Both the position numbers and the translations under genes were made by a program. A stretch of DNA of 64,000 bases from Candidatus Heimdallarchaeota archaeon (GTDB lineage Archaea; Asgardarchaeota; Heimdallarchaeia; Hodarchaeales; Hodarchaeaceae), in contig CP070695.1 in the NCBI GenBank assembly GCA_020353515.1, positions 4,228,931 to 4,292,930 on the forward strand, written 5' to 3'. The notes under the pieces were generated by a model. The model did no database searches and was not told the DNA's origin. It was given only the letters and a program-made list of their open reading frames with translations. Positions 29,822 to 64,000 of the stretch are shown piece by piece. Position 1 is the stretch's first letter. Every line of letters starts with the position of its first letter.

Positions 29822-31753
29822 CTACTCAAGATTATGTAAAAGCGCTGTTAAGCGCTTAACAGAGTCGGATAATCCTCCTGAACGATTTCTTCCTAACCAT
29901 ATCTTTTTGTGCTGCTCGATTAATTTTTGTAACGTTTTGTACAATTCAGTTCTCTTTTCTTCATGGATTTCATTCAAAGGCGCTTTGATACCAATCTCTA
30001 ATCTTGTTATCCCCAAATTACAAGCAAATTTCAAAACATTCGCAGCCCAAAGGAATTCTTGCTTTACTAATTCAGTATCCTCCCTTACAATATTCGCATT
30101 GTCTATTGATTTGATTATGTGACCAATATAGTTATATGTTTCTCGGAGGCTCTCAATCGTTATATTTTCAAGTGCCATATCAGAAAACTGATGCCCTGAG
30201 AATATTAGTATTAAAAAGAGCGATGAATTATTTGGAGGATTGAACTCAACTTTAGTATATGTATTCCCTAAATCATAAGCAAGCTTTCCCATAACTCCTG
30301 CAGAATCGTGAAATACATGGACATCAAGCAAATCAGAGATTAGGTTCTTTTTTTTTAATAATTCAGCATTATTGACATTCCATGCGATTCCTGAACCAAT
30401 TAGATACCCTAAATAACTGAAAGGCAATGGTTGAAGATGGCCATGATCACCCCAATCTGTAATAAGGTAACCAACGGCATTATTCTTTATTCCATTAACC
30501 CCTGCGTTATATAAATTGGCAAATGCATTATCAGTCCGTCCAGTAATGCTATTCCAGCTGCTAGTTCCAGGACATACATAATAAGACAGGCCTGTCTTGT
30601 TCATTTCTTTGGTTAGTATGTTAAAAGGATGTGATGCTTCGTACCCCCATATTAATGGAATTAATTCCTTTGGAATTTTTTGTATTAATTCTGGGTGTTG
30701 AAAAATAATATCCGCCCAGAATTGCATTTTTTTTCCTCTTTTTTTCACTAAATCATAGATTTTGAGGAGAAACTCTAGATAGATTGTAGATTTCCCTCTT
30801 TTATTGCACGCTTCTGCTGATTGGCCTTCTCCAAGATCAAACGTTTCATCAAGGCCAACATTAAAGGTATCACTGGAAAAATGAGGTAAAAGTTGATCAT
30901 AAAGATCCTCTAGTAAATCGATAACATGTGGATCAATTGGATTGAGAGAAAAAGGTTCTTTTACCGAACTAAATGGGTGATCATATCCTTCAGGACATTC
31001 TGCAAGTCCTCGATAAGGTTCATGAGACAACCAACGATGAAAATGACCAAAACTATTTTGATTCGGAATCAATTCAATATATCGATCTTTACAAAACTCA
31101 TCTAAGGCTAAAATTTCTTCTCCCGTGAAAGGACTGGCTTCTTTCCAAACAATTTCATGACCAGAATATGCAAATGTATGTTCCATGTAAAGTTGTAACT
31201 GATTGATCTTAAAATTTGAGAGTAGATCGACTAGATTAAATATGGTTTCCATGGTTGGGACTTTATCCCTACTTACATCTAGCATCACACCACGAGATGG
31301 AAAATCAGGCCAATCAAGAATTTCCAAACAAGGCAATTCTTGTTGATTCGACAAATCTAGAATTTGAGAAAAAGTGATCAGTCCGTAAAATAAACCTTGT
31401 TTATCGTGCCCATTTATCTGGATCTCTTTCTTATTTATTGTTATGTTATAACCTTCAGGATGTTCAAGTAATTCATTAATAAAAAGATTAAAGTAAATTA
31501 CATCCATTTTTGGAAGATTTGTCTTAGAAGCAGTAATCTTTGATTTAATTCCATGTTTACGTAACCTTTTCTGCAAATACTGAGCGTGAAAAAAGATATT
31601 AGTTGATTGATTGTTAATGACGATCCAGATTTCCTCAGGTAGGGATAAAGACCCATTTTTTACGGTTAGACGCTTAGGAAAAGGAAAAAGCAATTCTAAT
31701 TTTTCATTCATCTGAAATGTCTCCATAGCTTGAGATAGAAGGAAATACTTCAA
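29822..31753 (-). CDS. GH20 beta-N-acetylhexosaminidase (cytoplasmic)
   Basis: DWPDFPSRGVMLDVSR, PNQNSFGH, NVGLDET catalytic DE, TDWGD; start may be 31726 or 31711. Confidence 0.9.
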   Translation of the reverse strand: MKYFLLSQAMETFQMNEKLELLFPFPKRLTVKNGSLSLPEEIWIVINNQSTNIFFHAQYLQKRLRKHGIKSKITASKTNLPKMDVIYFNLFINELLEHPEGYNITINKKEIQINGHDKQGLFYGLITFSQILDLSNQQELPCLEILDWPDFPSRGVMLDVSRDKVPTMETIFNLVDLLSNFKINQLQLYMEHTFAYSGHEIVWKEASPFTGEEILALDEFCKDRYIELIPNQNSFGHFHRWLSHEPYRGLAECPEGYDHPFSSVKEPFSLNPIDPHVIDLLEDLYDQLLPHFSSDTFNVGLDETFDLGEGQSAEACNKRGKSTIYLEFLLKIYDLVKKRGKKMQFWADIIFQHPELIQKIPKELIPLIWGYEASHPFNILTKEMNKTGLSYYVCPGTSSWNSITGRTDNAFANLYNAGVNGIKNNAVGYLITDWGDHGHLQPLPFSYLGYLIGSGIAWNVNNAELLKKKNLISDLLDVHVFHDSAGVMGKLAYDLGNTYTKVEFNPPNNSSLFLILIFSGHQFSDMALENITIESLRETYNYIGHIIKSIDNANIVREDTELVKQEFLWAANVLKFACNLGITRLEIGIKAPLNEIHEEKRTELYKTLQKLIEQHKKIWLGRNRSGGLSDSVKRLTALLHNLE

Positions 31754-32001
31754 AATTTCATCTATTTTTGGATGCTTTGCGTTGCAATCCTCCTTTTTCT
31801 TACCTCAATATTAAGTATGATTCCTATTAGAAAAAATAAGTTTGAAAGAAAAATTGTAATAAAAGATCTCGTGAACCCATATCTATCATACAGATCATTA
31901 GTGAAAGAGTCGTTTTTTTAAAAAAAGAAGATCATTGATGTCAAAAAAAATAAAAACCTAATAGTCTTTTTGCTAAGAAAATACCAATCACCACCTCAAG
32001 G

Positions 32002-33429
32002 ATGAATATAATGAAAAGGATTTTACATTTGACATTTTTCTTAATATTTCCAGCAATTATCATTCTCTCACAAATCGATGTCACTCACGCACAAACATTG
32101 AGCTATAATTCACCACCCAAATCCTCACTGAATGAAAAATTAACTACGATGGATTTCCATGGGTTGTGTTATGGGGCTTTTCGCTATTTAGGTCCACCAG
32201 TAGAATTTATCCGTTCAGTAAACGTAGAAGAGGATCTTGAAATATTGAAACAATTAAATGTTACAGATATCAGGACATATGGGTTGAATTATAGACAAAA
32301 CGACATCCCTATAATAGCAAACGAGAAGGGAATAAACTGCGCAACAGGAATCTGGCTAGAACCTAATACTAGCATAAATAATCACTATCTGAATGAATAT
32401 GAAATTTCTTTGGCTCTAGATGTTGCTAATATCTCTTCAGTCTTAATTGCAGGGAATGAATTCCTCCTCCGAAATTATCCTACAATTCCAGTTTCCCAAC
32501 TTATTGATTATATATCTAAAGTCCAAAATCAGACTACCACACCAGTTACCACAGCAGAACCTTGGCATATTTGGGATCAACATCCTAAGCTAGTAAATGC
32601 ATGTGATGTATTATTTGTGCACGTATATAGCTATTGGGAGGGAAAACCTTCTCCAACTTATGGGAAGATAGCAGCAGAATATACAGTAGAGAAAATTGAG
32701 TATCTTCAAAATAAATACCCATATAAAGAAATATACTTAGCAGAGGCAGGTTGGCCCTCGGGACCAAAGGAATATGATCCTGATAGATATTCAGAACCAG
32801 TCCAAAAGAAATTTTTTGATGATCTGTTTCCTATGCTTAACGAAAAAGGGATAAAAAGTTATCTTTTTGAAGCATTTGATGAAAAATGGAAAGAAAATCA
32901 GGAACCTGGAGTTGGCCCTAATTGGGGAATCTTTAGAGAGGATAGAACACCTAAACCTGCAGCAGAGGTGTTAGTGAAATATTTCGGTGGCAGTGTAGAT
33001 TGGGCACCAACGATTAATTCTCCCAAAGATAACGTTGTTATTAAAAATGAAGTCGTGAATATTTCTTGGACAATCCTTGATATTGATACTACTTCTGGAA
33101 CTTATACAGTTTATGTAAACGGGGCCATTTCAGGACAACAGGATGATATCTGGGACAATGGTACTTCAATTAACATTAATGTCGATAGTGGAACTACAGG
33201 TTCATTTAATTACACAATTGTCTTCACCGATGGTATTGCCAGTGGGCAAGATACAGTCATTGTTACTATCAATGCGCCAGCTACATCTACCTCTTCTTCT
33301 TCTACCACTACTACTAGTACTACTACTTCCGTACCATCACCAGGTTTTGATATTTTGATGTGGATCTTCTCATTGTTTGTATTTTTTGGAGTTCATCGGT
33401 TTACTTCAAAAAAGAACAGGTCTAAGTAA
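32002..33429 (+). CDS. GH17 beta-1,3-glucanase, secreted, with Ig-like domain and PGF-CTERM
   Basis: IRTYG, AGNE, VTTAEPW, AEAGWPS, FEAFDEKWK; Ser/Thr linker; PSPGFDIL-TM-basic tail. Confidence 0.88.
   Translation: MNIMKRILHLTFFLIFPAIIILSQIDVTHAQTLSYNSPPKSSLNEKLTTMDFHGLCYGAFRYLGPPVEFIRSVNVEEDLEILKQLNVTDIRTYGLNYRQNDIPIIANEKGINCATGIWLEPNTSINNHYLNEYEISLALDVANISSVLIAGNEFLLRNYPTIPVSQLIDYISKVQNQTTTPVTTAEPWHIWDQHPKLVNACDVLFVHVYSYWEGKPSPTYGKIAAEYTVEKIEYLQNKYPYKEIYLAEAGWPSGPKEYDPDRYSEPVQKKFFDDLFPMLNEKGIKSYLFEAFDEKWKENQEPGVGPNWGIFREDRTPKPAAEVLVKYFGGSVDWAPTINSPKDNVVIKNEVVNISWTILDIDTTSGTYTVYVNGAISGQQDDIWDNGTSININVDSGTTGSFNYTIVFTDGIASGQDTVIVTINAPATSTSSSSTTTTSTTTSVPSPGFDILMWIFSLFVFFGVHRFTSKKNRSK
33281..33330 (+). 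repeat. Low-complexity TCT/ACT repeat encoding Ser/Thr linker
   Basis: Encodes ATSTSSSSTTTTSTTTS before the sorting signal. Confidence 0.7.
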
Positions 33430-33432: not shown

Positions 33433-34602
33433 ATGCATCCGTTATCGAAATTCTGGTTGATTATATGTTTCATTGTTATATTTTCCCAAATTAATTCCGT
33501 TATTTTTACAGAATCAACAGAAGAAAATGAGAAAAGACATCCATGGGAATTAATTTCAAGATTAGGAAAACTAATAGACTTCAAAGGATTTGGGTATAGT
33601 CCATTTCGTGATTCAGGACCAATTGGGGGAGAGCTCGCATCTGAATCCCTTGTTCGCGAGGATTTTACAATACTGAAGCAATTAAATGTAACTAATATCA
33701 GAACTTATGGTGTAGGACTGAACCAAATCATTATTCCAAAAATCGCTCATGAATATGGAATTTCTTGTGCAACAGGAGTGTGGATCGGAACAGATGATAA
33801 TGCCAATATCAAAGAAATTGAAGAAGGACTTTCAGTAGCCAATATTTCAACAATGTTAATCATTGGAAATGAGGTGTTATTTAAAGGTGATTTAACTGAT
33901 GCTGAATTAATAGATTATATTAAATATACTAAAAACCAGACATCAATTCCAGTGACAACAGCAGAGCCTTGGTATACTTGGTTAGATCATCCCAATTTAG
34001 CAAATGTAAGTGATGTACTCCTGATACATATCCATCCTTTCTGGGAATCACCAGTTTTCATTGATGAACCTTTAGGGCCAAAAATTCTTGTAAACTATAC
34101 TATATCTATATTTAACCGAGTTCAAGAAAAGTTTCCTAACAAGGAAATAATAATTGCAGAAACAGGGTGGCCAAGTGCAGGCCGACAGGATTGTAGTGAA
34201 GAGACTCAAAGACAATATTTTGAATCATTGTTCCCTTTACTTCATGAAAACAATATCAAATGTTATGCCTTTGAAGCATTTGACGAAATATGGAAAAAAG
34301 AACTGTGGCAAGGTAACCAGAGCTTTGATGTTGGACCTCACTGGGGTGTTTTTAATCTCAACCGGACTGGAAAACTCTCTATGAGGGTTTTTACTGAATG
34401 GTTTGGCGGGGAGTATAAAATTACAACAGTACTTCCCTATACAACTTCTCAAGTGAACCAAGATGCCACTAATACTTCTGATACACAGCTCAGTAGCACA
34501 ACAAAAACCAGTGTTTATCAGAGTAAAGGATTTGAGATATTTTGGGTGATTTTAGTTATTAAATCAACAATATATATTAAAAAAAGGAGAATTAAAGGGT
34601 GA
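33433..34602 (+). CDS. GH17 beta-1,3-glucanase paralog, secreted, with variant C-terminal anchor
   Basis: GYSPFR, IGNE, VTTAEPW, AETGWPS, FEAFDE; C-terminus SKGFEIFW-hydrophobic-KKRRIKG. Confidence 0.88.
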   Translation: MHPLSKFWLIICFIVIFSQINSVIFTESTEENEKRHPWELISRLGKLIDFKGFGYSPFRDSGPIGGELASESLVREDFTILKQLNVTNIRTYGVGLNQIIIPKIAHEYGISCATGVWIGTDDNANIKEIEEGLSVANISTMLIIGNEVLFKGDLTDAELIDYIKYTKNQTSIPVTTAEPWYTWLDHPNLANVSDVLLIHIHPFWESPVFIDEPLGPKILVNYTISIFNRVQEKFPNKEIIIAETGWPSAGRQDCSEETQRQYFESLFPLLHENNIKCYAFEAFDEIWKKELWQGNQSFDVGPHWGVFNLNRTGKLSMRVFTEWFGGEYKITTVLPYTTSQVNQDATNTSDTQLSSTTKTSVYQSKGFEIFWVILVIKSTIYIKKRRIKG

Positions 34603-34641: not shown

Positions 34642-37008
34642 GTGAGTAGCTTGAATTATGGTAATTTTTCTTCAGATGGTAAAGAATATATTATCACTAG
34701 ACCCGATACACCTACTCCTTGGATAAATTATTTAAGTAATAGTAATTATTGCGCAATGATTTCTAATACTGGTGGAGGTTATAGCTTCCACGTTGATCCA
34801 AGAGATAGGAGAATACTCCGTTATAGGTATAATAATGTTCCCATGGATAGACCTGGACGATATTTATACATTCGAGACAATCACACTTCAGAATATTGGT
34901 CCCCAACATGGCAACCAGTGCTAAAAAACCTTGATGAGTATAAATGTAGACACGGATTAGGATATACAATAATAGAATCCTTATATCAAGGAATCAAAGC
35001 AAAAATAACCTATTTTGTTCCTCTAGATAACGATTTAGAAGTATGGATATTCACTTTGAAAAATACTATAACAAAGCAAAAAGAAATTAGTGTTTTTTCT
35101 TATGCAGAATTTTGTTTATGGAGAGCTTTAGGCGATCAGAATGATTTACAATATATACAAAACGTGGCATTAACAAGCTTTGCTAATAACACAATTTATT
35201 ATTCCCTCTTTGACCGTAGCACCCGCTATGCCTTTTTTTCGTCTAGTCATCAAATAAATAGCTATGATTGCGACCGTGAAGCATTTATTGGCCCCTATCA
35301 TTCTGAATCGAATCCGATACGAGTCGAAAAAGGGAAGTGCTCCAATTCACAGGCACTTGGAGGTAACCCAGTTGCAGTGACCTGTACAGATGTAATACTC
35401 GATCCTGAGGAAGAAAAGATAATTATTTATGTTCTAGGAGTCATAGATGAAAAAAATAATAGTAAAGGGTTAATCCAAAAGTATACTGACCAGAAAGAGG
35501 TAAAATTAGAACTTCAAAAGCTTAGTACATCTTGGGATGCGTATTTAGATGCTTTTAAAATAAATACACCAGATAAGAACTTTAATTTAGTGTTGAATGT
35601 ATGGAATCCCTACCAATGTAGAACTACATTTGACTGGTCGAGATATGTGTCTTTTTATGAAACAGGTATTGGGAGAGGTATGGGATTTAGGGATAGTAGC
35701 CAAGATGCAATGGCGATTGGCTATGTCTATCCAAAAAGAGTCCGCCAGCGATTATTAGACTTAGCTCAAAACCAATTTGAAGAGGGGAAAGTCTATCATG
35801 TGTTTTTTCCACTTTCAGGTAAAGGAACATTCCCTGAATACGCTAACAAAGAACGTTTATTCTTTAGTGATGACCATCTCTGGATGATTTTAGCGGTTTC
35901 AGATTATCTTAAAGAAACAGGAGACATGTCTATTTTAGATGAAAATGTCAAATTCGTTGAAGGATCTGATGGATCTCTTTATGACCATCTTAAACGGGCA
36001 ATAGAATTCACTAAAAACAATCTAGGCAATCATAAACTCCCTCTCATCGGTACTGCAGACTGGAATGACACAATGAGCCTTCCTGGGCCAAATAATGCAA
36101 GTGAAAGTGTCTGGGTAGGTATGCAGTTCCATAAAGCTCTTTTATCACTTGTAGAAATTGCTGAGAAGTACGATCATAGTAATGATGCCATATCGTACAG
36201 AAAAATCGCTCACAGCATGAAAGAACACATAAACAGTACCACATGGGACGGAGATTGGTATATAAGAGCATTCACAGATAATGGAGAACCTATTGGCAGT
36301 AAAATCTGTGATGAAGGCAAAATTTTCCTTAATACGCAAACTTGGGCTATCATTAGTGAAATTGCCCCAAAGGATCGTGCATACCATTGTATGGATGAAG
36401 TAAGGAAATTCCTGAATACAGAGTACGGATTATTGCTTTTCGATCCTCCTTATACTAAGTTTAACCCAGAATTAGGAGGAATTACTACTTTCCCGCCAAG
36501 TTTAAAGGAGAATGCGAGTATTTTTTGTCATACAAACCCATGGGCTGTTATAGCGGAATGTATGCTTGGACGGGGTGACCTCGCCTTCGAATATTGGGAA
36601 AAAATCGCTCCTACAACAAAAAATATGATGTCAAAAATACATTATACAGAACCCTATATTTATTCCCAGATGATTACTGGTAGAGATCATCCAAAATTTG
36701 GTATGGCAAAAAATTCTTGGCTCACAGGCACAGCAGCTTGGTCACTTAAAGCTGCTACTGAATGGATTCTTGGAATTAGACCTACATTTGATGCGTTGAT
36801 TGTAGATCCATGTATTCCAAAAGCATGGGAAAAATTTCAGATTATCAGATGGTTTAGGGGAGCACTTTACAATATAGAAGTTGATAACTCTAAAAGCTTA
36901 TCAAAAGGAGTAAAAGAATTGAGAGTAGATTCTAAAATCGTGGAAGACCAGTTAGTACCTATTTACAACGATAATAAAACTCATCATGTAAATGTACTTC
37001 TTGGATGA
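34642..37008 (+). CDS. GH94 glycoside phosphorylase (specificity uncertain)
   Basis: PTPWINY, GRGMGFRD, FSDDHLW, ADWND, KENASIFCH, NSWLTGTA. Confidence 0.9.
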   Translation: MSSLNYGNFSSDGKEYIITRPDTPTPWINYLSNSNYCAMISNTGGGYSFHVDPRDRRILRYRYNNVPMDRPGRYLYIRDNHTSEYWSPTWQPVLKNLDEYKCRHGLGYTIIESLYQGIKAKITYFVPLDNDLEVWIFTLKNTITKQKEISVFSYAEFCLWRALGDQNDLQYIQNVALTSFANNTIYYSLFDRSTRYAFFSSSHQINSYDCDREAFIGPYHSESNPIRVEKGKCSNSQALGGNPVAVTCTDVILDPEEEKIIIYVLGVIDEKNNSKGLIQKYTDQKEVKLELQKLSTSWDAYLDAFKINTPDKNFNLVLNVWNPYQCRTTFDWSRYVSFYETGIGRGMGFRDSSQDAMAIGYVYPKRVRQRLLDLAQNQFEEGKVYHVFFPLSGKGTFPEYANKERLFFSDDHLWMILAVSDYLKETGDMSILDENVKFVEGSDGSLYDHLKRAIEFTKNNLGNHKLPLIGTADWNDTMSLPGPNNASESVWVGMQFHKALLSLVEIAEKYDHSNDAISYRKIAHSMKEHINSTTWDGDWYIRAFTDNGEPIGSKICDEGKIFLNTQTWAIISEIAPKDRAYHCMDEVRKFLNTEYGLLLFDPPYTKFNPELGGITTFPPSLKENASIFCHTNPWAVIAECMLGRGDLAFEYWEKIAPTTKNMMSKIHYTEPYIYSQMITGRDHPKFGMAKNSWLTGTAAWSLKAATEWILGIRPTFDALIVDPCIPKAWEKFQIIRWFRGALYNIEVDNSKSLSKGVKELRVDSKIVEDQLVPIYNDNKTHHVNVLLG

Positions 37009-37047: not shown

Positions 37048-38178
37048 TTAATACGATTTTCCGCCCCTGATAATCCAGTAAATAATTGCTAGGACCATTA
37101 CTCCAATAAATGATAAAGGTAATATGGGTATTGGCGCTATTGGAGTACCAAAAGCTAATATTTCTAACCCCTGCGTACCAAAAGCCACAAAAATAATAGA
37201 ATCATTAACATATACTTCTGAGGCCAACCCAACAATACCTGTTTCTTCATAAAATTGTCCTATTTCAATGGGAGAAGTGGGATCAGTTATATCATAGACT
37301 TCTAAACCATCAACATTATCTGCGACAAAAGCTCTATTTTCGCTCACGAAAACACTCAGTGCTAAACCACTATCATCATAAAATCCACCAATTTCAATAG
37401 GATTAGTAAGATCAGAAACATCAAGAATCTCTAAACCATCATCATGATCAGCCACGTATAAATAGGAGCCACTAAGATATAACCCTCGGGCCTTACCACC
37501 ATCAAAATGATGACCAATTCGTGTTATATTGGACAAGTTACTAAGGTCGAGGATTTCAACACCATCCTCGCCATCAGCAACAAAAGCATATGAATCATTC
37601 ACTACGATACCACTCGCACGACCCTTTTCATCATAATATTCCCCAACTTTTGTCAGATTCATTGGATCAGTAAGGTTTAAAACCTTCACACCAAATTCTC
37701 CGTCAGCAAGATACCCATAGGAACCGTCAATAAATATATCTAAAGTGTTACTCTTTTCAATTTCCTGTACGAAAGGAAATGTTTGTATTTCTTTTTCAAT
37801 ATAATGACTAATGTTGGATGGGGATCTTTGATTAGTTAAATTGATAGTTACCATTCCATCAAAGCCATTCGCTAAAAAAGCATAAGAACCATTGACATAC
37901 ACATCTTTAGGTTCTCCTGTATGAGGATTGAATTTACTAATAAGTGTACAGTTTTCTTTATTTGTCATGTTCACAATTTCTATACCTTGTTCCCCATCAA
38001 CAATATAGCCAATATCTCCACTTATATAGATTCCAAGAGCTCTTCCTCCGTCATCAAATTTTCCTATTCGCAGAATATTAAAATTCTTCTTATCTGCAGT
38101 GACAAAATGGATTTGAACCATTCCTAGAAGTAGAATCCCAATAATCAATGAAAAGTTAATTAATTTTCGTTTTTTCAC
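37048..38178 (-). CDS. LVIVD-repeat beta-propeller surface protein
   Basis: Seven repeats of YAFVADGxxGLEILD type; signal peptide; C-terminal Pro-rich segment and TM. Confidence 0.85.
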   Translation of the reverse strand: MKKRKLINFSLIIGILLLGMVQIHFVTADKKNFNILRIGKFDDGGRALGIYISGDIGYIVDGEQGIEIVNMTNKENCTLISKFNPHTGEPKDVYVNGSYAFLANGFDGMVTINLTNQRSPSNISHYIEKEIQTFPFVQEIEKSNTLDIFIDGSYGYLADGEFGVKVLNLTDPMNLTKVGEYYDEKGRASGIVVNDSYAFVADGEDGVEILDLSNLSNITRIGHHFDGGKARGLYLSGSYLYVADHDDGLEILDVSDLTNPIEIGGFYDDSGLALSVFVSENRAFVADNVDGLEVYDITDPTSPIEIGQFYEETGIVGLASEVYVNDSIIFVAFGTQGLEILAFGTPIAPIPILPLSFIGVMVLAIIYWIIRGGKSY

Positions 38179-39013: not shown

Positions 39014-39025
39014 AAAAGCCCACCA

Positions 39026-40009: not shown

Positions 40010-40013
40010 AGTT

Positions 40014-42380: not shown

Positions 42381-42398
42381 ATGTTGTTGTTATTCAGC

Positions 42399-49572: not shown

Positions 49573-49616
49573 TTATACTAGATAAAATTGATTCAATTTA
49601 CAGGAAGAATTATTTC

Positions 49617-52141: not shown

Positions 52142-52846
52142 GTGAAAAAAACTATTCTAATTACAGGAACAAACAGGGGTTTAGGTCTTGCTCTTACTAA
52201 GATATTCCTCGAAAATGGAGACACTGTTTTAGCTCTATATAGAACGCACAGTGATAGATTACAAGAATTGAAAAATAATTTCAAGGATAATATGTTCTTA
52301 TTCGAAGTAGATGTAACCAAAGAGATCGATATAAGAGATGTTTTTTCACAGATTAGAAGGATAACATCATCTATCGATATTTTGGTAAATAACGCTGCTA
52401 TTCATTTAGAAAATCATCGACCTGAACTAGAAAAAACTGATTTTGAAGCGATAGGGGAAACATTTGAAGTTAATTCAATTTCTCCCCTGAAAATAATCAA
52501 ATATGGCATTCCACTAGTTAAGAATAGTCACAATAAACTCATTGTCAATATTTCATCAGAAGCAGGCTCAATTAGCAATCAAACGTGGCGTGAAAGTGAA
52601 TATGGTTACTGTATGAGTAAAGCTGCACTAAACATGATGTCAAAATTACTCCATAATCGATTTAAGAAGGACGGTGTAAAGATATTGGCTGTTCATCCAG
52701 GATGGTTTAGTTCAGATATGGGAGGACCTGAAGCCCCAATTACTCCATTGCAAGCAGCAAATAATGTAGCAAGGACTATTCTTAAGGAATGGAAAATAGA
52801 CGATCAAATCTTTGTTGACTATGATGCTAAACTAATGGATTGGTAA
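52142..52846 (+). CDS. Short-chain dehydrogenase/reductase
   Basis: TGTNRGLG, NNAA, NISS, YCMSK, HPGW. Confidence 0.9.
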   Translation: MKKTILITGTNRGLGLALTKIFLENGDTVLALYRTHSDRLQELKNNFKDNMFLFEVDVTKEIDIRDVFSQIRRITSSIDILVNNAAIHLENHRPELEKTDFEAIGETFEVNSISPLKIIKYGIPLVKNSHNKLIVNISSEAGSISNQTWRESEYGYCMSKAALNMMSKLLHNRFKKDGVKILAVHPGWFSSDMGGPEAPITPLQAANNVARTILKEWKIDDQIFVDYDAKLMDW

Positions 52847-52878: not shown

Positions 52879-55437
52879 CTAGCAGTTCCATCCATCGATT
52901 TTAACTATCGCTTTACCTTTTAAAGCATGTTTCGGGATTATCCCCTTGATCTCAACCTTCTCTGTTGGAAATAGACTAATACAATTATCATTCCAGTAAA
53001 TAGGTGAAACATATTTCCCTGTACTACTATCAGTAATTAAAAACCGTAGAAAGAAAGCCAAATATTCTGAGATGTTTTCAACATCAACGATGATTTCATA
53101 ATGATTATCATTTTCTTTTATGTTTGAAGAATGATTTATCTTCGCTCTAGGTAGAGAAAATAACTCTCGCATATCTGCATGAGATTTTAACGGTGTATAA
53201 AACCATTCATCTTTCTCTTCAAAGATATCTTTCTTTGTTGAGAGCCAATAAGTATTTTTGATGATCATAATTGAATCATCTTTAAGTGTGAGATCGATGA
53301 AAAAAACTGAAGAGAGTCCCTCAATTCTAGGGAGATCAAAAATCTTTTTCTTATTATTTGGGTCAATATCGATCTTACTCCAAGTTTGTGAAAATTTTGT
53401 TTCAAGATCTATGTTTAACACTCTCACAGTAATAGCTAAATTCTCCTTTTTAGCAAGAGCTGAATTGATGACCCAAATTGAAGCATCATCATATGAATAT
53501 TGAACATGAAGTGGTTCACACGCCTTTTTTGAACCAAAAAAAGCACCATTAGGATTATTGTAATAATCATATAATTGCCAAATCAAACTCGGCCAGGGAC
53601 TATTTAGCATCCATCCGATAACACCTGTTGCCTTCGGGAAGTTTCTAGCATGTGCTTCATACATGGCTCGCCAACATTCATATCCCAAAACTTGCGTTGT
53701 TCTTACGAAACTTTCTATACCTTTTTGTTCACCATATCTTTCCGTAATAGCATCTTCAACTATTTTAGTTGAGCTAAAAGCTCCTAAACCAGCGTGATGA
53801 TTCCAAGCTTCACTTCCAACAACGTGTTGATCTTCTGGAAGAAATCGTTCTATGCTTTCAAGAGGAGGAATACAGGTATCTGGCCCTGTTTCTGTGTTGA
53901 AACCATAAGCAGCGCCAGGTCTTCCTTCTGAATACCAGTAAATTGGAGGGACATACGTATAAGGGCCAGTCATCTTCACTCCTGTCTCTCCTAGTAATTC
54001 AGAAGGTTGAGCTGTAGCACTAGAAATTCTAGGTAGATCATCATAAGTTTCTTTTAATACATTGAGATAAACTTCTTCAACAGGCTTAGGAGGAGGAAAA
54101 TCACTTCCATAAAACCACGCTACAAGACTGGGATGATTACGTAATCGCAGTAATTGGGAAAGCAATGATTCTTTGGCAACTTGAATGTCCCCACTTTTCC
54201 ATTTTTTCCATTTCTCCCAGTGGCTACAGCAAACCCATCCTGCTAAGACTAACATTCCTTTTTTGTCACATTCATCCCAAAAATGATCTGTCGCAAGTTT
54301 ACCCTCAAGACGCACAATGTTCATGTTAAGATTCCTAAGAAAATCAATTGAAATTTCATCTTCCAATTTGGATTGGCGTAACATCATATCAGGTGTCCAA
54401 GCAGCCCCGCGCATTAGAATGTCATGCCCATTAATGGTGAAAACGCGAGATCCATACTCATTTATAGATGTCTTAACATCTCTTATACCAAAAGTTACCT
54501 TTTTGCTATCAGAAATTTGGTTATTTACTTTAACTTGAATATCCAACTCATATAATTCTGGTGAACCTAATTGATATGGCCACCATACTCGAGGATTATT
54601 TATCCTTAGGTTTGGGAAATCTTCTGAGGATATTTCTATTATTTCTTTTTGAAAAGAAGAAAGTTTAATTTCCTTCTTAAAAGTGATATTTTCTATAGTT
54701 CCTTCTAAAACTGCATTAATAGGATCTTTTTGTGTATTGGTAAGCTCTGCACTAATCAGAACTTTTGCTTCTGTTAATGTACTTACGTTTAACTTACTTT
54801 GTATGAACACATTCTTCATCACGACTGGTCCTGTAGTATATAAGAAAATAGGTTGCCATATACCCATGTTGTCATCAGGGGGTAATGGACACCAGTCAAC
54901 AAAACTAATACCAAGATCATCAGGATTTGGAGAGAAGACTTCTAGTGCGAGAACATTTTTGCCTGAATGATTTAAGAAATGTGTTACATGAAAGTCATAT
55001 CTACGATATGTTCCTATAACATAATCAGAACCAGCAATTCGCTTTCCATTTAGCCATATATTTGCTGAATAATTAATACCATTGAATACTATCCAATATT
55101 CATTCTTTGTTTGACCCTCATCTAGTAAAAACTCTTTTCTAAACCACCATGACTTTCTATATGGACTATCTTCAGGTTTATAGCGGCTTTCGAAATTCTG
55201 TTGCTGTTGTACATCTTTTTTATAACCTGGCAAAGATTTCAGATTTAATCCAAAATACGGGTCCTTGAACTGAAATTCACCATTTATAACAAGACCATTC
55301 ACTACAGTTGACGGCACATCAACAGTATACCAATCTTCTGGATTGAAATCAGCTGTAGAAATCTTTTCACCATACTTCGATACCTTTTCCGAAGATTGCA
55401 TTTTCCATTCTTTATTCAAGGGCTTTTTATTACTCAT
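52879..55437 (-). CDS. GH2 exo-beta-D-glucosaminidase (CsxA-like), cytoplasmic
   Basis: WWPYQLG, RLEGK, RNHPS..GSD, KMTGPY, FNTETG, WMLNSPWPSLIWQLYD. Confidence 0.8.
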   Translation of the reverse strand: MSNKKPLNKEWKMQSSEKVSKYGEKISTADFNPEDWYTVDVPSTVVNGLVINGEFQFKDPYFGLNLKSLPGYKKDVQQQQNFESRYKPEDSPYRKSWWFRKEFLLDEGQTKNEYWIVFNGINYSANIWLNGKRIAGSDYVIGTYRRYDFHVTHFLNHSGKNVLALEVFSPNPDDLGISFVDWCPLPPDDNMGIWQPIFLYTTGPVVMKNVFIQSKLNVSTLTEAKVLISAELTNTQKDPINAVLEGTIENITFKKEIKLSSFQKEIIEISSEDFPNLRINNPRVWWPYQLGSPELYELDIQVKVNNQISDSKKVTFGIRDVKTSINEYGSRVFTINGHDILMRGAAWTPDMMLRQSKLEDEISIDFLRNLNMNIVRLEGKLATDHFWDECDKKGMLVLAGWVCCSHWEKWKKWKSGDIQVAKESLLSQLLRLRNHPSLVAWFYGSDFPPPKPVEEVYLNVLKETYDDLPRISSATAQPSELLGETGVKMTGPYTYVPPIYWYSEGRPGAAYGFNTETGPDTCIPPLESIERFLPEDQHVVGSEAWNHHAGLGAFSSTKIVEDAITERYGEQKGIESFVRTTQVLGYECWRAMYEAHARNFPKATGVIGWMLNSPWPSLIWQLYDYYNNPNGAFFGSKKACEPLHVQYSYDDASIWVINSALAKKENLAITVRVLNIDLETKFSQTWSKIDIDPNNKKKIFDLPRIEGLSSVFFIDLTLKDDSIMIIKNTYWLSTKKDIFEEKDEWFYTPLKSHADMRELFSLPRAKINHSSNIKENDNHYEIIVDVENISEYLAFFLRFLITDSSTGKYVSPIYWNDNCISLFPTEKVEIKGIIPKHALKGKAIVKIDGWNC

Positions 55438-55470: not shown

Positions 55471-58400
55471 CTATAGAGAGACATCACTCACATATTGAGA
55501 AACTTGATAGATTGATCCATAGTTATATTCACCAGGAACTAAACCTGCGATCTTAAGGATATGACCAACACTTTGATTCCGCTCTTTAATGCGTTCCCAC
55601 AATGGTCGTGGGTCATATCCAGGAATTGTTAGAAAATCAACAACCTGTTGACTACTCAATCTTTGAATAGCTATTATCTTCAGATCCATTTCTTTTTCAG
55701 AAAAAGGAACGATTATATTTCCTCTTGCAACAGAGAACTCCTCCATAGTCGTCTTGTAATACCATAAGTCAACTTTTCGAATTGTAGACCTTTTTAATGC
55801 CAATTCAAAGATTTCTACAATTCTTGCTTTGAGACCATGAGGATCAGTTATTCCCCCAGGAATAAAAATTAGGTCTGGTTGCTCTTGATCTAGAATTGTA
55901 ACTAAAGGAACGATATCAACATCAGAGATCTCAACGATTTTTTCGATAGTTCTAGTTTCGTAAAAAGGTAAATTTAAGAAAACTTGATTTTCAGAGGGTA
56001 TCCCCATATATGCATGCATATCTATTGCTTCAGATTTCCTAACAAGAGTCTTTAACTCTAATAATTTCATCATATCAATGGTATTTTCTTGAATATCTTC
56101 TATAATTGATTTATCGAAAAGATTCTGTTTACAATAATCGATAACATCAGAATTTTTCACATTGATGTTACCACTAACCATATTTATTATTTTTAAGTTG
56201 TTATTATTTCTAACCAAAGTTCGTACAGTCTCAGCAATAATACCATCGTCACCAGGCCGACAAGAAATCACTAATATATTTTTATGTCTCGGTAGCTTTT
56301 CTTTGAACAATATTTTTTCATTAATCCTCTCTAATACCTCAGACGTCAGTCTAGGAACATTATAGTTAAAAAGTTGTAGAAGCTCAGAAAGGAAGTTATT
56401 GTGGAAATCTTGTAAGTCAAGTTGAGTCAACGGCTTTTTTGTTGTCAATGAGACCCAAATTATAGCCTCATCGATTTTTGTATTATCAGTTTCTGTTTTA
56501 TCGGTTTCATTCATCCAATCCATATCGAAAAATAACCAAGGATAAGACATTCGACTTAATTTAGATGCAGCACCCTCCTCTATTAGAAAAGTAGTGTTGA
56601 CATGAGTTTGTAATGCACTGGCAGGTATAAAAGGAGTAATTTTACCCTCTACAGCCTCCTTAATAATGAGTGCCTTATGTTCTCCTGAAGCTAATAGAAT
56701 TATTCTCCTTGCGTCTAATATTGTTCCTATTCCCATTGTAACTGCATAACGAGGAACCTCTTCCATACTTTGAAAAAATCGTGAATTATCTACTCGCGTT
56801 TTTTCTGCTAAACCCACTTTCCTCGTTCGAGAGAAGAAATCTGAGCCAGATTCGTTAAATCCGATGTGTCCTCCATGAATTTCTCTCTTTTCTGTATAGA
56901 AGCTCTCACCAATTCCTAAAATCTGAATATCAATACCTCCAGCCTTCTGGACCAATTGCTCAAATGATTCACAGTAAGATTCAAGATCTTTCTCTGAACA
57001 TTCCCCGTTAGGGATATGAACGTTTTTTGGATTGATATTAATCTGATTGAATAACCAATAATGCATGAAAGTATGATAGCTTTGACTATTTTCTTTTTCT
57101 AGGGGATAATATTCATCAAGATTGAAAGTCGTTACCTTAGAAAAGTCTAGATTTTCTTCTTTATGCATCCGCACTAATTCTTTATACATGCTGATAGGAG
57201 TACTTCCAGTTGCTAACCCCAAAACGGTATTAGGTTTTCTTCGGATTTGCTCAGCGACTATTTGGGCAGCTGCTTTTCCCATTTCCTGATCGTCTTTTTT
57301 AATGACTACAACTACTTTTTCGGATATTTCTCCTACTTTTTGCATCCCCATAATAGCTGCACCAATAGCACCGACAAATTTTCGTTCAGTTTCAGGAAAT
57401 CTTTCCAAAGATGATTCATATACCTGAACAGGGGTGATTTTTGGAATAAAGCGGGTTTTTAAATTGTCACGTACAGTTTCATAAAAATTATACCCGAATT
57501 TTACGATATTACTTCCAATAAGGACTTGATCAATATTTGTTAAATCAACGATTATCTTTATCGCTTTGGCAACATCATTGGCAATCTCATCCAATTTCTC
57601 CTCAGTAAGATCAGAAATGGTTGACATTTTTGCTTCAAGGCAGCCTTTATTTCCACAGCCACATACAGATGCATCAACAGTATCATCGATAATTATATGT
57701 CCTAGTTCGCCTGCAAAGTAGTTTTCACCGTGAACTATTCGATCATTTATGATGATACCTCCACCAACGCTCTCTCCAAGGGTAAGGGTAAAAAAGTCTC
57801 CATCAATCCTAGAAATTTCTTTTTCTCCTAGAGCGATGACATTAGCATCATTTTCAATAAAGGTAGGATGACCAATAGCAGTTTCTATTTCGGCTTTGAG
57901 ATTAATATCGTGGAAATCACCCATTGCTATCATTCTTCTAACAACTATTGGGCCAATTCCACCAGGGATACCAATACCAACGCTTTTAATTTTATCAGGA
58001 TTCAAAGATTCCAATAATTCTTTAATTAAGTCGATAATGCTATTGATAACAGATCTATAGCCTTCTTCTTTTTTTATGCTTCTTCCTGATCTTTTAATTA
58101 TGTTCCCATTACCATCAATGCATACTCCATTAATGGTTTTGCCCCCAACTTCAACGCCTAACCCTATTTGATTTTCAAATTGGCCTAGCTTTTTTATTTT
58201 TGAAGTTAAAGAAATTGGCTCTTCACTGTAAAAAGGGAGTGAAGTTAAAATCTGAACCCCCCCACCTAATTTTTCAAATGTAAATTTGTTTTGAAGACTA
58301 AAACTCAAAGATTTAATGAGATATGATTGAAGAGCTTTATCTTCACATTCAAGAACGATTGCTTTAGGACCGAAGATGTTAATTATATTGAAGATCTTAA

Positions 58401-58512
58401 TAGAAAGTTTTCTCAAGTCTATTTCTTTTTTAGTTTCTACATTAAATTCTACAAAATCAAATTTTGAAAGTAAAAAGGTTTGATTATTCATCAACCTTAT
58501 TGTAACGTCCAT
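55471..58512 (-). CDS. nagB: ROK domain + glucosamine-6-phosphate deaminase + degenerate PIG-L/LmbE domain fusion
   Basis: ROK: ENDAN, GELGH, CGCGNKGCLE; NagB: GLATGSTP, NLDEY, GHIGFNE, TMGIGTI; PIG-L-like: RKSEA, LPFYET, DPHG. Confidence 0.85.
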   Translation of the reverse strand: MDVTIRLMNNQTFLLSKFDFVEFNVETKKEIDLRKLSIKIFNIINIFGPKAIVLECEDKALQSYLIKSLSFSLQNKFTFEKLGGGVQILTSLPFYSEEPISLTSKIKKLGQFENQIGLGVEVGGKTINGVCIDGNGNIIKRSGRSIKKEEGYRSVINSIIDLIKELLESLNPDKIKSVGIGIPGGIGPIVVRRMIAMGDFHDINLKAEIETAIGHPTFIENDANVIALGEKEISRIDGDFFTLTLGESVGGGIIINDRIVHGENYFAGELGHIIIDDTVDASVCGCGNKGCLEAKMSTISDLTEEKLDEIANDVAKAIKIIVDLTNIDQVLIGSNIVKFGYNFYETVRDNLKTRFIPKITPVQVYESSLERFPETERKFVGAIGAAIMGMQKVGEISEKVVVVIKKDDQEMGKAAAQIVAEQIRRKPNTVLGLATGSTPISMYKELVRMHKEENLDFSKVTTFNLDEYYPLEKENSQSYHTFMHYWLFNQININPKNVHIPNGECSEKDLESYCESFEQLVQKAGGIDIQILGIGESFYTEKREIHGGHIGFNESGSDFFSRTRKVGLAEKTRVDNSRFFQSMEEVPRYAVTMGIGTILDARRIILLASGEHKALIIKEAVEGKITPFIPASALQTHVNTTFLIEEGAASKLSRMSYPWLFFDMDWMNETDKTETDNTKIDEAIIWVSLTTKKPLTQLDLQDFHNNFLSELLQLFNYNVPRLTSEVLERINEKILFKEKLPRHKNILVISCRPGDDGIIAETVRTLVRNNNNLKIINMVSGNINVKNSDVIDYCKQNLFDKSIIEDIQENTIDMMKLLELKTLVRKSEAIDMHAYMGIPSENQVFLNLPFYETRTIEKIVEISDVDIVPLVTILDQEQPDLIFIPGGITDPHGLKARIVEIFELALKRSTIRKVDLWYYKTTMEEFSVARGNIIVPFSEKEMDLKIIAIQRLSSQQVVDFLTIPGYDPRPLWERIKERNQSVGHILKIAGLVPGEYNYGSIYQVSQYVSDVSL

Positions 58513-61005: not shown

Positions 61006-61989
61006 ATGAGAAAGGTAGATGTGAGGTGGAAGAAGATCTTTAGTCATCCATCCATGAACTATGTTTTTAAAAAATCTGCTTTTTATTTGGTAGCAATTAT
61101 CATAGCCCTTACATTTGCTTTTTTCGTCCCGAGGTTCATGTCCTCTGCAGAAAGGAATATTTGGGTTGTTTATTTTTTTGACCTAGATAAACCGTTGGTA
61201 GAACAATATCTAATTTTTTGGTCTAATTTAATCCGACTTGATTTAGGCCCATCTTTTACTTACTATCCTATGACTGTAATAGAAGTAATGTTTTTTCCTC
61301 TTATTTACACATCACTTCTAGTAATTCCAGTATTATTCCTAAGTTTCTATGTAGGTAATTGGATTGGGGGTAGAGCTGCATACCTTAAAGGCAGATTAAA
61401 TGATTTGGTTTACTATATTTTACTCTGTGCCCGATCAGCACCGTTTTATTGGCTAGGAATTATCATATTTGTCTATTTTGTGACAGGGGACAATATCTTT
61501 CTTGCACATCCTGGCGGAATCAGTCCTGGAGTTAGTCGAGGATTTACTACAGAATTTTTCATTGATACTTTGCGTCATTATGCTCCAGCATTTCTAACAT
61601 TATTTATTGTCAACATAGGATTCTGGGCATTGGGTATGCGAGCTATGATTCTTTATGAAATGGAGACGTCTTATATTAATTATGCGAGACATTCAGGATT
61701 TAGAAATTCAACATTAAGAAAATATTCACAAAGAAACGCTATTTTACCACAGTTCACTTTGTTGAACATGAGATTGAATGAACTCGTTGGTGAGACATTG
61801 ATATTAGAAAACGTCCTCTTATGGCCTGGGATTGGTGCTCTATATTTAGATTCCATATTATCACGAGACTACCCCCTTGTAACGGGGATTACTATTGTAC
61901 TTTTAGTAATTGCTATTATTGGCAATTTTTTGATCGATGTATCATATGGATTACTAGATCCCCGTATAAGAACTGGATCTAAGACTTAA
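61006..61989 (+). CDS. Second OppB-like ABC permease, paralog of 41041-42132
   Basis: Shared segments WIGGRAAxLKGRLNDL, GDNIFLxHPGGISP, EFFIDTLRHYAP, LDPRI. Confidence 0.88.
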   Translation: MRKVDVRWKKIFSHPSMNYVFKKSAFYLVAIIIALTFAFFVPRFMSSAERNIWVVYFFDLDKPLVEQYLIFWSNLIRLDLGPSFTYYPMTVIEVMFFPLIYTSLLVIPVLFLSFYVGNWIGGRAAYLKGRLNDLVYYILLCARSAPFYWLGIIIFVYFVTGDNIFLAHPGGISPGVSRGFTTEFFIDTLRHYAPAFLTLFIVNIGFWALGMRAMILYEMETSYINYARHSGFRNSTLRKYSQRNAILPQFTLLNMRLNELVGETLILENVLLWPGIGALYLDSILSRDYPLVTGITIVLLVIAIIGNFLIDVSYGLLDPRIRTGSKT

Positions 61990-62075: not shown

Positions 62076-63071
62076 ATGGAAAAAGGATCTGATCAAACCA
62101 TCATTGGTGATAACTTACCAAATATACCTTGGGAAAATAAACCGAAAGATTGTTTTGATGTCGTTTGGCGTTCAGAACGAAATCCTATAATTCCTAGGGA
62201 TTTAATACCTTCCTCGAATAGTATTTTCAACAGTGCTGTAGTTCCTTTTAATGGTGAATTTGCTGGAGTTTTTAGATGTGATGATAAATATCGAAATATG
62301 CGACTACATAAAGGAAAGAGTAAAGATGGTTTAAACTGGGATATCGATGATGAACCTATCTCTTTCATATGTGATAATTCAGATATTGCTACATTTGTCT
62401 ATGGATATGATCCTAGGGTCTGTTGGATAGAGGAACGATTCTATGTGACTTGGTGTAATTGGTATCATGGTCCAACTATTGGTGTTGCATATACTCATGA
62501 TTTTAAAGAATTTTATCAACTAGAAAATACTTTTTTACCTTATAATAGGAATGGTGTGTTATTTCCACGAAAAATCAATGGAAAATATGCGATGGTAAGT
62601 CGACCTAGCGATCGAGGACATACACCTTGGGGAGACATTTTCTATAGTGAGAGCCCTGATATGATTCATTGGGGTCATCATCGCCATGTTATGTCAGCTA
62701 ACTTTGGTTGGCAATCAACAAAGATCGGAGCTGGTCCTATTCCAATTGAAACCACTAAGGGTTGGCTCATGATTTACCATGGTGTGTTAACATCGTGTAA
62801 CGGATTTGTATATAGTATGGGAGCCGCCATACTCGATCTTAAGCGACCTTGGGAGGTCAAGTACCGAACAGGACCATATATTCTATCCCCGCAAAAACTT
62901 TACGAATGTGTTGGGGATGTACCGAATGTCGTATTTCCATGTGCTGCATTAACTGATGCTACAACAGGTCGTATCGCTATCTATTATGGGGCAGCGGACA
63001 CAGTTATCTGTTTAGCCTATACTCAGGTAGACGATCTTATTGAATTTACTCAAACCAATACAATAATATAA
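62076..63071 (+). CDS. GH130 beta-mannoside phosphorylase (beta-1,4-mannooligosaccharide/mannosyl-GlcNAc type)
   Basis: [42 protein letters not shown]. Confidence 0.9.
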
Positions 63072-63144
63072 CAAAGCAAAAGTCATACATGAAATTAGAG
63101 TACTTCAAAGGTACAATTTATTATTTCTTTTAAGAAGCCTGAGG

Positions 63145-64000
63145 ATGATGTCTTATCGTAAATTGTTGGTTATTAGCATTTCAATATTGCTTCTATTGAG
63201 TGGAATGATGTTTTTCTATCTTTTTAACATGATCTCTCAGCCTGTACCCCCTGAAAATAATGATACAACAACTGAACCAACAGATAAGAAACCTGAACCG
63301 ACTTTCCTGGAAGTAGAATATTCATCTTATTTTTGGGAACAATTAACCTGGTCTGATGAGTTCAATTATACTGGTTTTCCGAATGATACTAAATGGAACT
63401 TTGAGATGCGTGGACCAGGTTGGGTTAACGAAGAGGAACAGGAATATGTGAAAGATCTAAATAATTCTTTTGTAGAAAATGATACATTGATTCTAAAAGC
63501 CACTCTCAGCGATAAAATTGGTATTAAATACACATCTGCAAGAATAAATTCACGTTCACATGGTTCTTGGACCTATGGCCGATTTGAAGCTAGGGCCATT
63601 TTACCTCATGGCCGTGGACTCTGGCCTGCAATCTGGATGATGCCTCAGAGCAGCGTTTATGGCTGGTGGCCAGAAAGTGGGGAGATAGATATCATGGAAT
63701 ATGTGGGGTACAATCCTGGGGTTATTCATGGGACGATTCATTGTGAGGCTTATAATCATTTGAGAGGTACCCAGCTAGGAGGATCTACTGTTATTACTGA
63801 CTGTGAGGAACAATTTCATACTTACGCCATTGAATGGTTCCCCAATCGTCTTGATTTCTTTGTAGATGATCTAAAGTACTTTACATTTAATAAAGAAGAA
63901 AATGCTTCCTCCCATACATGGCCATTCGATCAAAACTTTTATTGGATCCTAAATATTGCGGTTGGGGGTTCTTGGGGTGGACTTTATGGAATTGATGACT
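63145..64000 (+). CDS. GH16 laminarinase-type glucanase with N-terminal membrane anchor (3' truncated; absent from ORF track)
   Basis: Open to the window end: TM helix, Pro/Thr linker, WSDEF, YTSARI, WPAIWM, WPESGEIDIME catalytic motif, WPFDQ..LNIAVGG. Confidence 0.92.
   Translation, partial: MMSYRKLLVISISILLLLSGMMFFYLFNMISQPVPPENNDTTTEPTDKKPEPTFLEVEYSSYFWEQLTWSDEFNYTGFPNDTKWNFEMRGPGWVNEEEQEYVKDLNNSFVENDTLILKATLSDKIGIKYTSARINSRSHGSWTYGRFEARAILPHGRGLWPAIWMMPQSSVYGWWPESGEIDIMEYVGYNPGVIHGTIHCEAYNHLRGTQLGGSTVITDCEEQFHTYAIEWFPNRLDFFVDDLKYFTFNKEENASSHTWPFDQNFYWILNIAVGGSWGGLYGIDD

Follow-up and report, generated by a model that had tools for sequence, protein, structure and literature searches.

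A mosaic gene cluster predicted to harvest beta-linked glycans in a Hodarchaeales archaeon

Beta-glucan utilization loci built around an Opp-family ATP-binding cassette (ABC) importer are known from both domains of prokaryotes. The beta-glucan locus of Thermotoga maritima (TM0024–TM0032) reportedly combines Lam16 of glycoside hydrolase family 16 (GH16), BglB (GH3), an Opp-family cellobiose/laminarin ABC system with the binding protein TM0031, and the ROK regulator BglR, and Pyrococcus furiosus carries CbtA-F, an Opp-family ABC importer for cellobiose and beta-glucosides, with lamA/celB. Here we describe an accessory gene cluster of about 34 kb from a Hodarchaeales archaeon, an order that, among known archaea, is one of the closest to eukaryotes and whose lifestyle is inferred almost wholly from genomes. 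The cluster occupies the right half of a 64,000-nucleotide stretch, hereafter the window (G000:C1:4228931-4292930; contig CP070695.1 of assembly GCA_020353515.1), and the source genome is a single 4.94-Mb contig with 96% completeness. We propose, with a probability of about 0.75, that the cluster would serve to harvest fragments of beta-linked glycans. No paper describing it was found in the literature, where the carbohydrate-active enzymes (CAZymes) of Asgard archaea are inferred in general terms.

In overall design, the locus is an enlarged mosaic relative of the Opp-type beta-glucan loci of Thermotoga and Pyrococcus and of phosphorolytic modules with two GH94 enzymes. As in T. maritima, a GH16 laminarinase, a GH3 enzyme and an Opp-type importer lie together, and the family-5 solute-binding protein (SBP5) is nearest in sequence to the T. 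maritima binding protein. Unlike the T. maritima locus, this one has an archaeal host, Heimdall-CTERM or transmembrane (TM) anchors and no regulator gene, and it adds two GH17 enzymes, a GH116, two GH94 enzymes and branches for glucosamine and mannosides. The P. furiosus system shares the archaeal setting and the Opp-family importer, but phosphorylases take the place of the GH1 enzymes of the Pyrococcus and Thermococcus systems. The chitin pathway of Thermococcus kodakarensis runs through ChiA, Dac and GlmA (PMC6566704). An exo-beta-glucosaminidase route to glucosamine is common to that pathway and the present locus, which uses a CsxA-type GH2 where T. kodakarensis uses GH35, and NagB in place of GlmD. 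The Thermococcales pathway is defined by a chitinase and an active PIG-L/LmbE deacetylase; here, GH18 has no match in the genome, and PIG-L has lost its catalytic residues. The closest counterparts of the phosphorolytic part are the clostridial Cbp/Cdp pair and the two-GH94 modules of Anaerolineae, Thorarchaeota and Bathyarchaeia, in which a cellobiose-phosphorylase GH94 and a GH94 with an opened acceptor site adjoin an Opp importer, often with a GH130 alongside. The locus departs from these in the length of GH94a (788 residues versus ∼1000 for classical cellodextrin phosphorylase) and in the addition of surface GH16, GH17 and GH116 enzymes and an amino-sugar operon.

Surface depolymerization, capture, import and cytoplasmic finishing are encoded together, as they are in the SusC/SusD polysaccharide-utilization loci (PULs) of Bacteroidota and in Gram-positive PULs. 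There is, in contrast to Bacteroidota, no outer membrane, and Pfam found neither susC nor susD among window open reading frames (ORFs) of at least 120 residues. Gram-positive PULs are defined by enzyme, transporter and regulator, of which the first two are present here by homology and the third is absent. A preliminary description of this DNA had called the locus a PUL-like system built on ABC import and archaeal anchors instead of SusC/D. The importer and the anchored surface proteins bear out that architecture, and the comparison with PULs holds for surface enzymes and ABC import but not for a linked regulator or a SusC/SusD pair.

In the mechanism we propose, each enzymatic step of which is assigned by homology, a GH16 endo-laminarinase, two GH17 enzymes and an N-terminally anchored GH116 would cut beta-1,3- and mixed-linkage glucans such as laminarin at the cell surface. 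The resulting oligosaccharides would be captured by SBP5, tethered through its Heimdall-CTERM, and imported by the Opp-type ABC transporter. In the cytoplasm, GH3, the cellobiose-phosphorylase-type GH94b and the open-site GH94a would convert them to glucose and glucose-1-phosphate, sparing ATP. GH2 would release glucosamine for the NagB deaminase of a triple fusion protein, GH130_2 would phosphorolyze beta-1,4-mannosides, possibly including mannosyl-N-acetylglucosamine (Man-GlcNAc), and GH20 would remove terminal N-acetylhexosamine from imported fragments. Domains were assigned by a Pfam scan of all window ORFs of at least 120 residues, with NCBIfam models in addition, and the 18 kb past the window end were also inspected for downstream genes. 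Within the genus, we compared 21 congeners (G003, G008, G011, G012 and G015 among them), along with 19 genomes from other families of the class. Coordinates are window positions unless labeled G0xx or L.

Six products carry an N-terminal signal or anchor, mostly combined with a C-terminal tail of motif, TM helix and basic residues, and are predicted to sit at the surface: GH16, GH17a, GH17b, GH116, SBP5 and an LVIVD beta-propeller protein. The first four qualify by homology as surface enzymes that cleave polysaccharides. GH16 aligns with the laminarinase of Rhodothermus marinus at 252 bits, and its counterparts in congeners, encoded after GH130, are separate proteins of 314–331 residues. Both catalytic Glu residues are present in GH17a and GH17b, for which the nearest solved structure is a Rhizomucor beta-1,3-glucanosyltransferase (58 bits); relatives of GH17a at ≥ 40% identity occur only in Hodarchaeota-type genomes, bacterial GH17 proteins reaching 30–38%. 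The PGF tail of GH17a resembles Heimdall-CTERM, yet falls under the reporting threshold of model NF045529. GH116 matches TxGH116 at 856 bits. Together with a Thermotoga-type SBP5, a cytoplasmic GH3 and two GH94 enzymes, this set gives the beta-glucan reading good support by homology and makes beta-1,3-glucan a plausible main target, in line with the preliminary description.

The Opp-type system comprises five genes (38216-44525, minus strand), and the order of its ATPases and permeases is the same in G008, G011 and G012. SBP5 scores 29.5 to 35.6 bits against NF045529 (cut-off 24) through its C-terminal motif, TM helix and basic tail. Its nearest structures are the cellobiose/laminarin-binding proteins 2o7i and 4jsd of T. 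maritima (162 bits), and it is much farther from binders of peptides or chitin oligosaccharides, which points to a putative importer of beta-glucan oligosaccharides. The LVIVD protein at the end of the importer operon possibly binds glycans; its atlas features fall only into generic beta-propeller clusters and gave no functional lead.

GH20, GH3, GH94a, GH94b, GH2, GH130 and the NagB fusion have no signal or anchor segments and are predicted to be cytoplasmic. The best NCBIfam match of GH3 is an exo-beta-1,3/1,6-glucosidase, under the model cut-off. GH94b matches the cellobiose phosphorylase of C. thermocellum at 1115 bits and keeps the catalytic Asp of the DWND motif, the full catalytic loop and the equivalents of Glu649 and Tyr653. 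By these features it is a bona fide cellobiose phosphorylase, which would make beta-1,4-linked fragments targets as well. GH94a keeps the catalytic Asp and the arginines of the phosphate site and −1 subsite (R351 and R362), but its catalytic loop is 15 residues shorter, with Gly in place of E649 and Phe in place of Y653, so that it lacks the hallmarks of a cellobiose phosphorylase. The shortened loop and the Gly at E649 are common to the whole archaeal GH94a clade. In cellobiose phosphorylase, the catalytic loop closes subsites +2/+3, and engineering ties such loop changes and changes at E649 to the use of longer or substituted acceptors (PMC7471185, PMC10572201). Because it shares these features, GH94a is probably an open-site GH94 that accepts oligosaccharides or a substrate other than cellobiose. 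Identification as a chitobiose phosphorylase was rejected (574 bits, versus 733 bits to cellobiose phosphorylase), as was laminaribiose phosphorylase, no such structure being among its matches. We tentatively raise, as somewhat doubtful, the idea that the short-loop clade has an uncharacterized specificity, with beta-1,3- or mixed-linkage gluco-oligosaccharides as one conceivable class of substrates.

The phosphorylases also suit a reading in which the archaeon would scavenge, as a generalist, beta-linked di- and oligosaccharides freed by other microbes (such as cellodextrins, manno-oligosaccharides and fragments of the N-glycan core), with phosphorylases central and surface enzymes minor, and would have no system dedicated to attacking beta-1,3-glucan together with chitin/chitosan. 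The strict cellobiose-phosphorylase type of GH94b fits this, and GH94 with GH130 or GH1 and an Opp ABC system recurs without surface glucanases in Thorarchaeota, another Promethearchaeote, Bathyarchaeia and Anaerolineae; the grouping of GH20, a second GH2 and GH130 in G008, as in N-glycan core degradation, and the lack of a GH18 match in the genome also speak for it. It leaves less room for four membrane-anchored enzymes active on beta-glucan, with GH16 and GH17 conserved along with the cluster in congeners, and for the tight packing of the GH17a-GH17b-GH94a operon (intergenic gaps of 3 and 39 nt). We regard this emphasis as improbable, while noting that it and the proposed harvesting of surface-cut glucans overlap more than they exclude each other. 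The recurrence of the core module also tempers the novelty earlier claimed for the locus, which was overstated.

The glucosamine branch starts from the GH2 enzyme, which matches CsxA (2vzs) at 549 bits over its whole length, in an alignment ending at CsxA residue 890 of 1032. The aligned motifs RLEG, GSDF and ET keep the equivalents of E394, S468-D469 and E541, the last of which is presumably the nucleophile of CsxA-type GH2 enzymes. In these enzymes, Glu394 binds the C2 amine and Asp469 is the acid/base (PMC6566704). The archaeal protein has neither signal peptide nor CBM35 and thus differs from secreted, CBM35-bearing CsxA as a cytoplasmic variant. It forms an operon with the ROK-NagB-PIG-L fusion, an arrangement shared by a relative with a 63% identical fusion. 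Of the three domains, NagB has an intact core (TIGR00502, 280 bits, over the cut-off), so that the proposed glucosamine branch is upheld by homology, with a CsxA-type GH2 that has its key residues and an intact deaminase.

The two other domains of the fusion have changed. Throughout the genus, PIG-L reads CRPGDD and HGLK, versus PHPDDD and HGTH in active homologues, with the loss of two zinc ligands and the general base; the ROK domain has altered ATP motifs and lacks a segment of ∼40 residues. Hel-type Asgard copies of the fusion keep the ROK and PIG-L motifs, including HPDD and HxxH. In the genus studied here, an intact NagB is thus flanked by retained pseudo-enzyme ROK and PIG-L domains.

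GH130 resembles UhgbMP, RaMP2 and TM1225 over its full length (543, 508 and 438 bits), which places it in GH130_2 and agrees with the beta-mannoside branch proposed before. GH20 keeps catalytic D302-E303 in the motif GLDE, its PDB matches are weak (≤ 55 bits), and its orthologues in the G008 and G011 clusters are ∼71% identical. Chitin, also named as a target in the preliminary description, finds no support, because GH18 has no match in the 96%-complete genome, no NagA was recognized in the window, to which that search was confined (no cluster gene is a NagA, nor is an upstream amidohydrolase), and both PIG-L and ROK have degenerate motifs. Six CE4 deacetylase matches lie elsewhere in the genome, far from the locus. 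Glucosamine oligomers and mannosides are plausible substrates on these assignments. A eukaryotic cell-wall target is a possibility, the same glycans being available also from bacterial and algal sources.

Gut bacteria use GH130_2 and GH20 enzymes (UhgbMP, BT1033) on linkages of the N-glycan core, and the nearest solved GH17 is a glucanosyltransferase. These enzymes could therefore be seen as tools for remodeling the cell's own glycans, with the GH17 pair serving at the surface as beta-1,3-glucanosyltransferases for a glucan or exopolymer of the organism itself, and GH20, GH130 and GH2 recycling the cell's own N-glycans. We consider this very unlikely: the locus contains no glucan synthase or glycosyltransferase, an importer of high-affinity type and ATP-saving phosphorylases suit nutrition, and a cluster that is accessory, with about 5 of 21 congeners having it and decay visible in G015, would be unexpected for envelope maintenance.

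All ten glycoside hydrolase and phosphorylase genes, the Opp-type importer and the amino-sugar fusion named in the preliminary description were recovered by Pfam (Table 1). The same queries run against the whole 4.94-Mb genome gave few paralogues outside the cluster; because of this, and because the gene order is kept in other species, the clustering is far beyond chance. The statement that no obviously unrelated housekeeping genes intervene needs amending, since genes for LVIVD, short-chain dehydrogenase (SDR), alpha/beta-hydrolase, ThuA, VOC/glyoxalase and a lone Opp permease lie inside, all of them syntenic in G008. The cluster was also said to run off the window. GH16 does cross the edge, but only by ∼100 nt, after which comes a receptor-like surface protein and no CAZymes; because GH16 of congeners stops 29 residues past the window end and the next gene is not a CAZyme, we place the end of the CAZyme cluster at ∼64.1 kb, for a span of ∼34 kb. 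The distances between genes point to about eight transcription units: GH20; GH17a-GH17b-GH94a; GH3, then SBP5, then permeases-ATPases-LVIVD; GH94b-GH116-SDR; (ROK-NagB-PIG-L)-GH2; hydrolase-ThuA; VOC; and permease-GH130-GH16. A second CAZyme-rich region of the chromosome (G000:C1, ∼3.65–3.70 Mb) holds two GH3 genes, a GH2, ThuA, two of the three genomic GH5 genes and a distant GH94-like gene.

Table 1. Features of the cluster and its surroundings, in window positions unless labeled otherwise; functions are predicted.
Feature	Position	Strand	Remarks
GH20 beta-N-acetylhexosaminidase-like	29822..31753	-	Pfam GH20b and GH20; no signal peptide, no TM
Promoter element, copy 1	31850..31895	.	GH20/GH17a intergenic region
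GH17a	32002..33429	+	Signal peptide, GH17, Ig-like region, Ser/Thr linker, PGF-type C-terminal anchor
GH17b	33433..34602	+	44% identical to GH17a; signal peptide, C-terminal TM anchor
GH94a short-loop phosphorylase	34642..37008	+	Cytoplasmic; 788 residues; Asgard/Bathyarchaeia clade
LVIVD beta-propeller surface protein	37048..38178	-	Signal peptide, C-terminal TM anchor; last gene of importer operon
Opp/Dpp-type ATPases with oligo_HPY	38216-39013, 39026-40009	-	Pfam
Opp/Dpp-type permeases	40014-41051, 41041-42132	-	Pfam
SBP5, family-5 solute-binding protein	42399..44525	-	Pfam; signal peptide, Heimdall-CTERM anchor
Promoter element, copy 2	44600..44650	.	Upstream of SBP5; kept at orthologous site in G011
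GH3 exo-beta-glucosidase, BglX type	44777..46948	-	Cytoplasmic
GH94b cellobiose phosphorylase	47128..49572	+	Putative bacterial (Chloroflexota-like) origin
GH116 beta-glucosidase	49569..52046	+	N-terminal membrane anchor, TM residues 15-49
SDR	52142..52846	+	Accessory; syntenic in G008
CsxA-type GH2 exo-beta-D-glucosaminidase	52879..55437	-	With Ig_GlcNase domain; cytoplasmic
ROK-NagB-PIG-L triple fusion	55471..58512	-	1013 residues
Alpha/beta-hydrolase	58745-59491	+	Accessory; syntenic in G008
ThuA	59578-60219	+	Accessory; syntenic in G008
VOC/glyoxalase	60221-60670	-	Accessory; syntenic in G008
Lone Opp-type permease	61006..61989	+	Paralogue of importer's first permease; adjoins GH130, likewise in G008
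GH130_2 beta-1,4-mannoside phosphorylase	62076..63071	+	UhgbMP-like; cytoplasmic
GH16 laminarinase	from 63145, crossing window end 64000	+	N-terminal signal anchor, EIDIME intact
Receptor-like surface protein, distal 977 residues	L002:1032-3965 (window-equivalent 64102-67035)		Follows GH16
Paralogue of receptor-like protein	L002:3969-6656		895 residues
Cluster remnants in G015, examples	G015:C1 854066-855859, 668221-670749, 817862-818290		

As had been supposed, the DNA comes from an Asgard archaeon, here one of Hodarchaeales type: the nearest orthologues of several cluster proteins are records named Hodarchaeota, Hodarchaeales or Promethearchaeota, an Arf-family GTPase gene lies upstream of the cluster, and 30 of the 32 Heimdall-CTERM (NF045529) matches listed for the genome exceed the cut-off, the strongest being SBP5 of the cluster itself. 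Several cluster enzymes are 62–71% identical to Chloroflexota proteins, as would be expected if the right half of the window were an assembly chimera or bacterial contamination. We checked this and found the cluster to be host-like in GC content (0.35–0.38, versus 0.358 ± 0.013 for the genome and a median of 0.555 for the bacterial loci with the nearest cellobiose phosphorylases) and in tetranucleotide distance (7th–88th percentile of the genome). Independently assembled congeners show the same order: G008 has a nearly identical arrangement on the same contig as a RING-scaffold gene that neighbors the cluster in the source genome too, the order is largely kept in G011, and it is partly kept in G003 and G012. 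Because of the host-like composition, the synteny and the Heimdall-CTERM anchor on SBP5, the contig, the only one of the genome, is non-chimeric and the cluster is genuine and chromosomally integrated; with the Asgard-type GH94a and NagB fusion also inside it, an artifact is hardly credible.

Regulation of the locus has few visible traces. Pfam found no DNA-binding domain in any cluster ORF, and the stretches between genes conceal no small ORFs. An element of ∼45 bp is shared by the divergent GH20/GH17a intergenic region and the SBP5 promoter, with the consensus CTGTATG-N6-ATGGGT followed by ACGA.ATC.TTTT..ATTAC; its exact 13-base core occurs at these two sites only in the whole 4.94-Mb genome. 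We regard it as a candidate operator-plus-TATA module. The other cluster promoters do not contain it, relaxed searches giving chance-level matches, and a common operator for all promoters was ruled out, as only two of about eight carry the element. In G003, a 453-residue protein with an ArsR-type helix-turn-helix N-terminus follows GH130-GH16 (L113:2530-3891, G003:C53); it has no homologue in the source genome and may be a locus regulator that the latter lacks.

Sequence comparisons describe the cluster as a mosaic of Asgard/archaeal genes (GH94a and the NagB fusion) and genes resembling those of Chloroflexota, in particular Anaerolineae (GH94b and GH130). Relatives of GH94a at 56–65% identity come from Loki-, Thor-, Odin-, Hermod- and Njordarchaeota and from Bathyarchaeia, and the triple fusion is confined to Asgard genomes of Hod- and Hel-type. 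Six Asgard GH94b sequences form one clade (support 99) amid Chloroflexota at ∼70% identity, and GH130 is 65–71% identical to Anaerolineae genes that adjoin a cellobiose phosphorylase. The sole evidence on the origin of GH116 is one Anaerolineae neighbor of a cellobiose phosphorylase, 62% identical. We considered and rejected en-bloc transfer from Anaerolineae: their loci share the cellobiose phosphorylase, GH130 and an Opp system (34–45% identity), in one case with a GH116, and because these are pieces only, the cluster was not transferred at once.

The full set is present in about 5 of the 21 congeners. GH94b, GH17, GH2, GH16 and an orthologous GH130 co-occur in G003, G008 and G011 and partly in G012, all four of which have the GH130 orthologue, and none of these five is found in the 19 genomes from other families of the class. 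In G015, a genome of 3.2 Mb in one contig, GH94b and GH3 survive as truncated genes, an in-frame TAA interrupts GH2 and GH16 is reduced to its first 130 residues, which looks like cluster loss in progress in a smaller genome.

Several observations weigh against the proposed harvesting function or parts of it. Substrate specificities come from homology only, and two of the families are distant from characterized enzymes (GH17 at 58 bits and GH20 at 55 bits), the nearest GH17 structure being a fungal transglycosylase and no hydrolase. GH94b implies beta-1,4-linked cellobiose, yet the locus has no endo-1,4-glucanase, the three GH5 genes lying elsewhere in the genome. The altered ROK motifs leave the glucosamine kinase step uncertain. 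The locus has no transcription factor, and with the shared element in only two of about eight promoters, co-regulation is not established. On the evolutionary side, the inferred donor of GH94b comes from a FastTree tree with a basal polytomy.

Beyond the window end, GH16 is followed by a receptor-like protein with an ectodomain of Ig-like and DUF7743 regions, one TM helix and a cytoplasmic tail of ∼190 residues, and then by its paralogue. Read through across 64001-64100, which reads as N, GH16 and the receptor-like part give an apparent 1296 residues. The reading of GH16 as a 1296-residue protein was set aside, because congeners have a stand-alone GH16 and a separate receptor of ∼1550 residues without GH16. 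From its first residue, the part after 64100 shows homology to such ∼1550-residue surface proteins, beginning at residue 570 of the latter. An in-frame fusion that joins GH16 to the distal portion of this giant, receptor-like surface protein with its folliculin-type longin tail, similar to GTPase-activating proteins, is unlikely but deserves mention. In its favor, the frame stays open for 977 codons past 64100 in the same frame as GH16, the receptor homology begins at the first residue after that point, and the 100-nt interval is too short for the end of GH16 with a stop and a new start with a signal peptide; the stand-alone GH16 of three congeners speaks against it. The tail recurs as a C-terminal module in 154 cluster representatives; the proteins that carry it have up to 5809 residues, and congener ORFs with this module reach 10,069 residues. 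Its predicted structure is a longin domain (mean predicted local distance difference test score 89), with a Lokiarchaeota Roadblock-Longin protein (8yqg) and folliculin in FLCN-FNIP2 (6ulg, 8dhb) as nearest structures; it keeps FDQxxGP and ARGG motifs, and 14 of 40 members have a weak match to Pfam Folliculin. If true, the fusion would wire a beta-glucan-binding or -cleaving ectodomain directly to small-GTPase signaling. After the surface-protein genes come a DUF1670 protein with a Gly-Asn/Asp repeat tail (L002:6578-8529) and a 202-residue ORF.

If the proposed function is right, the locus gives this lineage a concrete nutritional strategy, namely surface depolymerization of beta-glucan, ABC import and ATP-saving phosphorolysis; by itself, it says nothing about eukaryogenesis. 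The capacity appears to be accessory, with gains and losses between the species of a single genus. It would have arisen from a phosphorylase/importer core found across Asgard archaea, extended by Chloroflexota-like genes from co-resident sediment bacteria, while the surface proteins would have received anchors that belong to the host lineage itself. For enzyme discovery, the clade of short-loop GH94 proteins and that of the distant GH17 proteins make reasonable targets.

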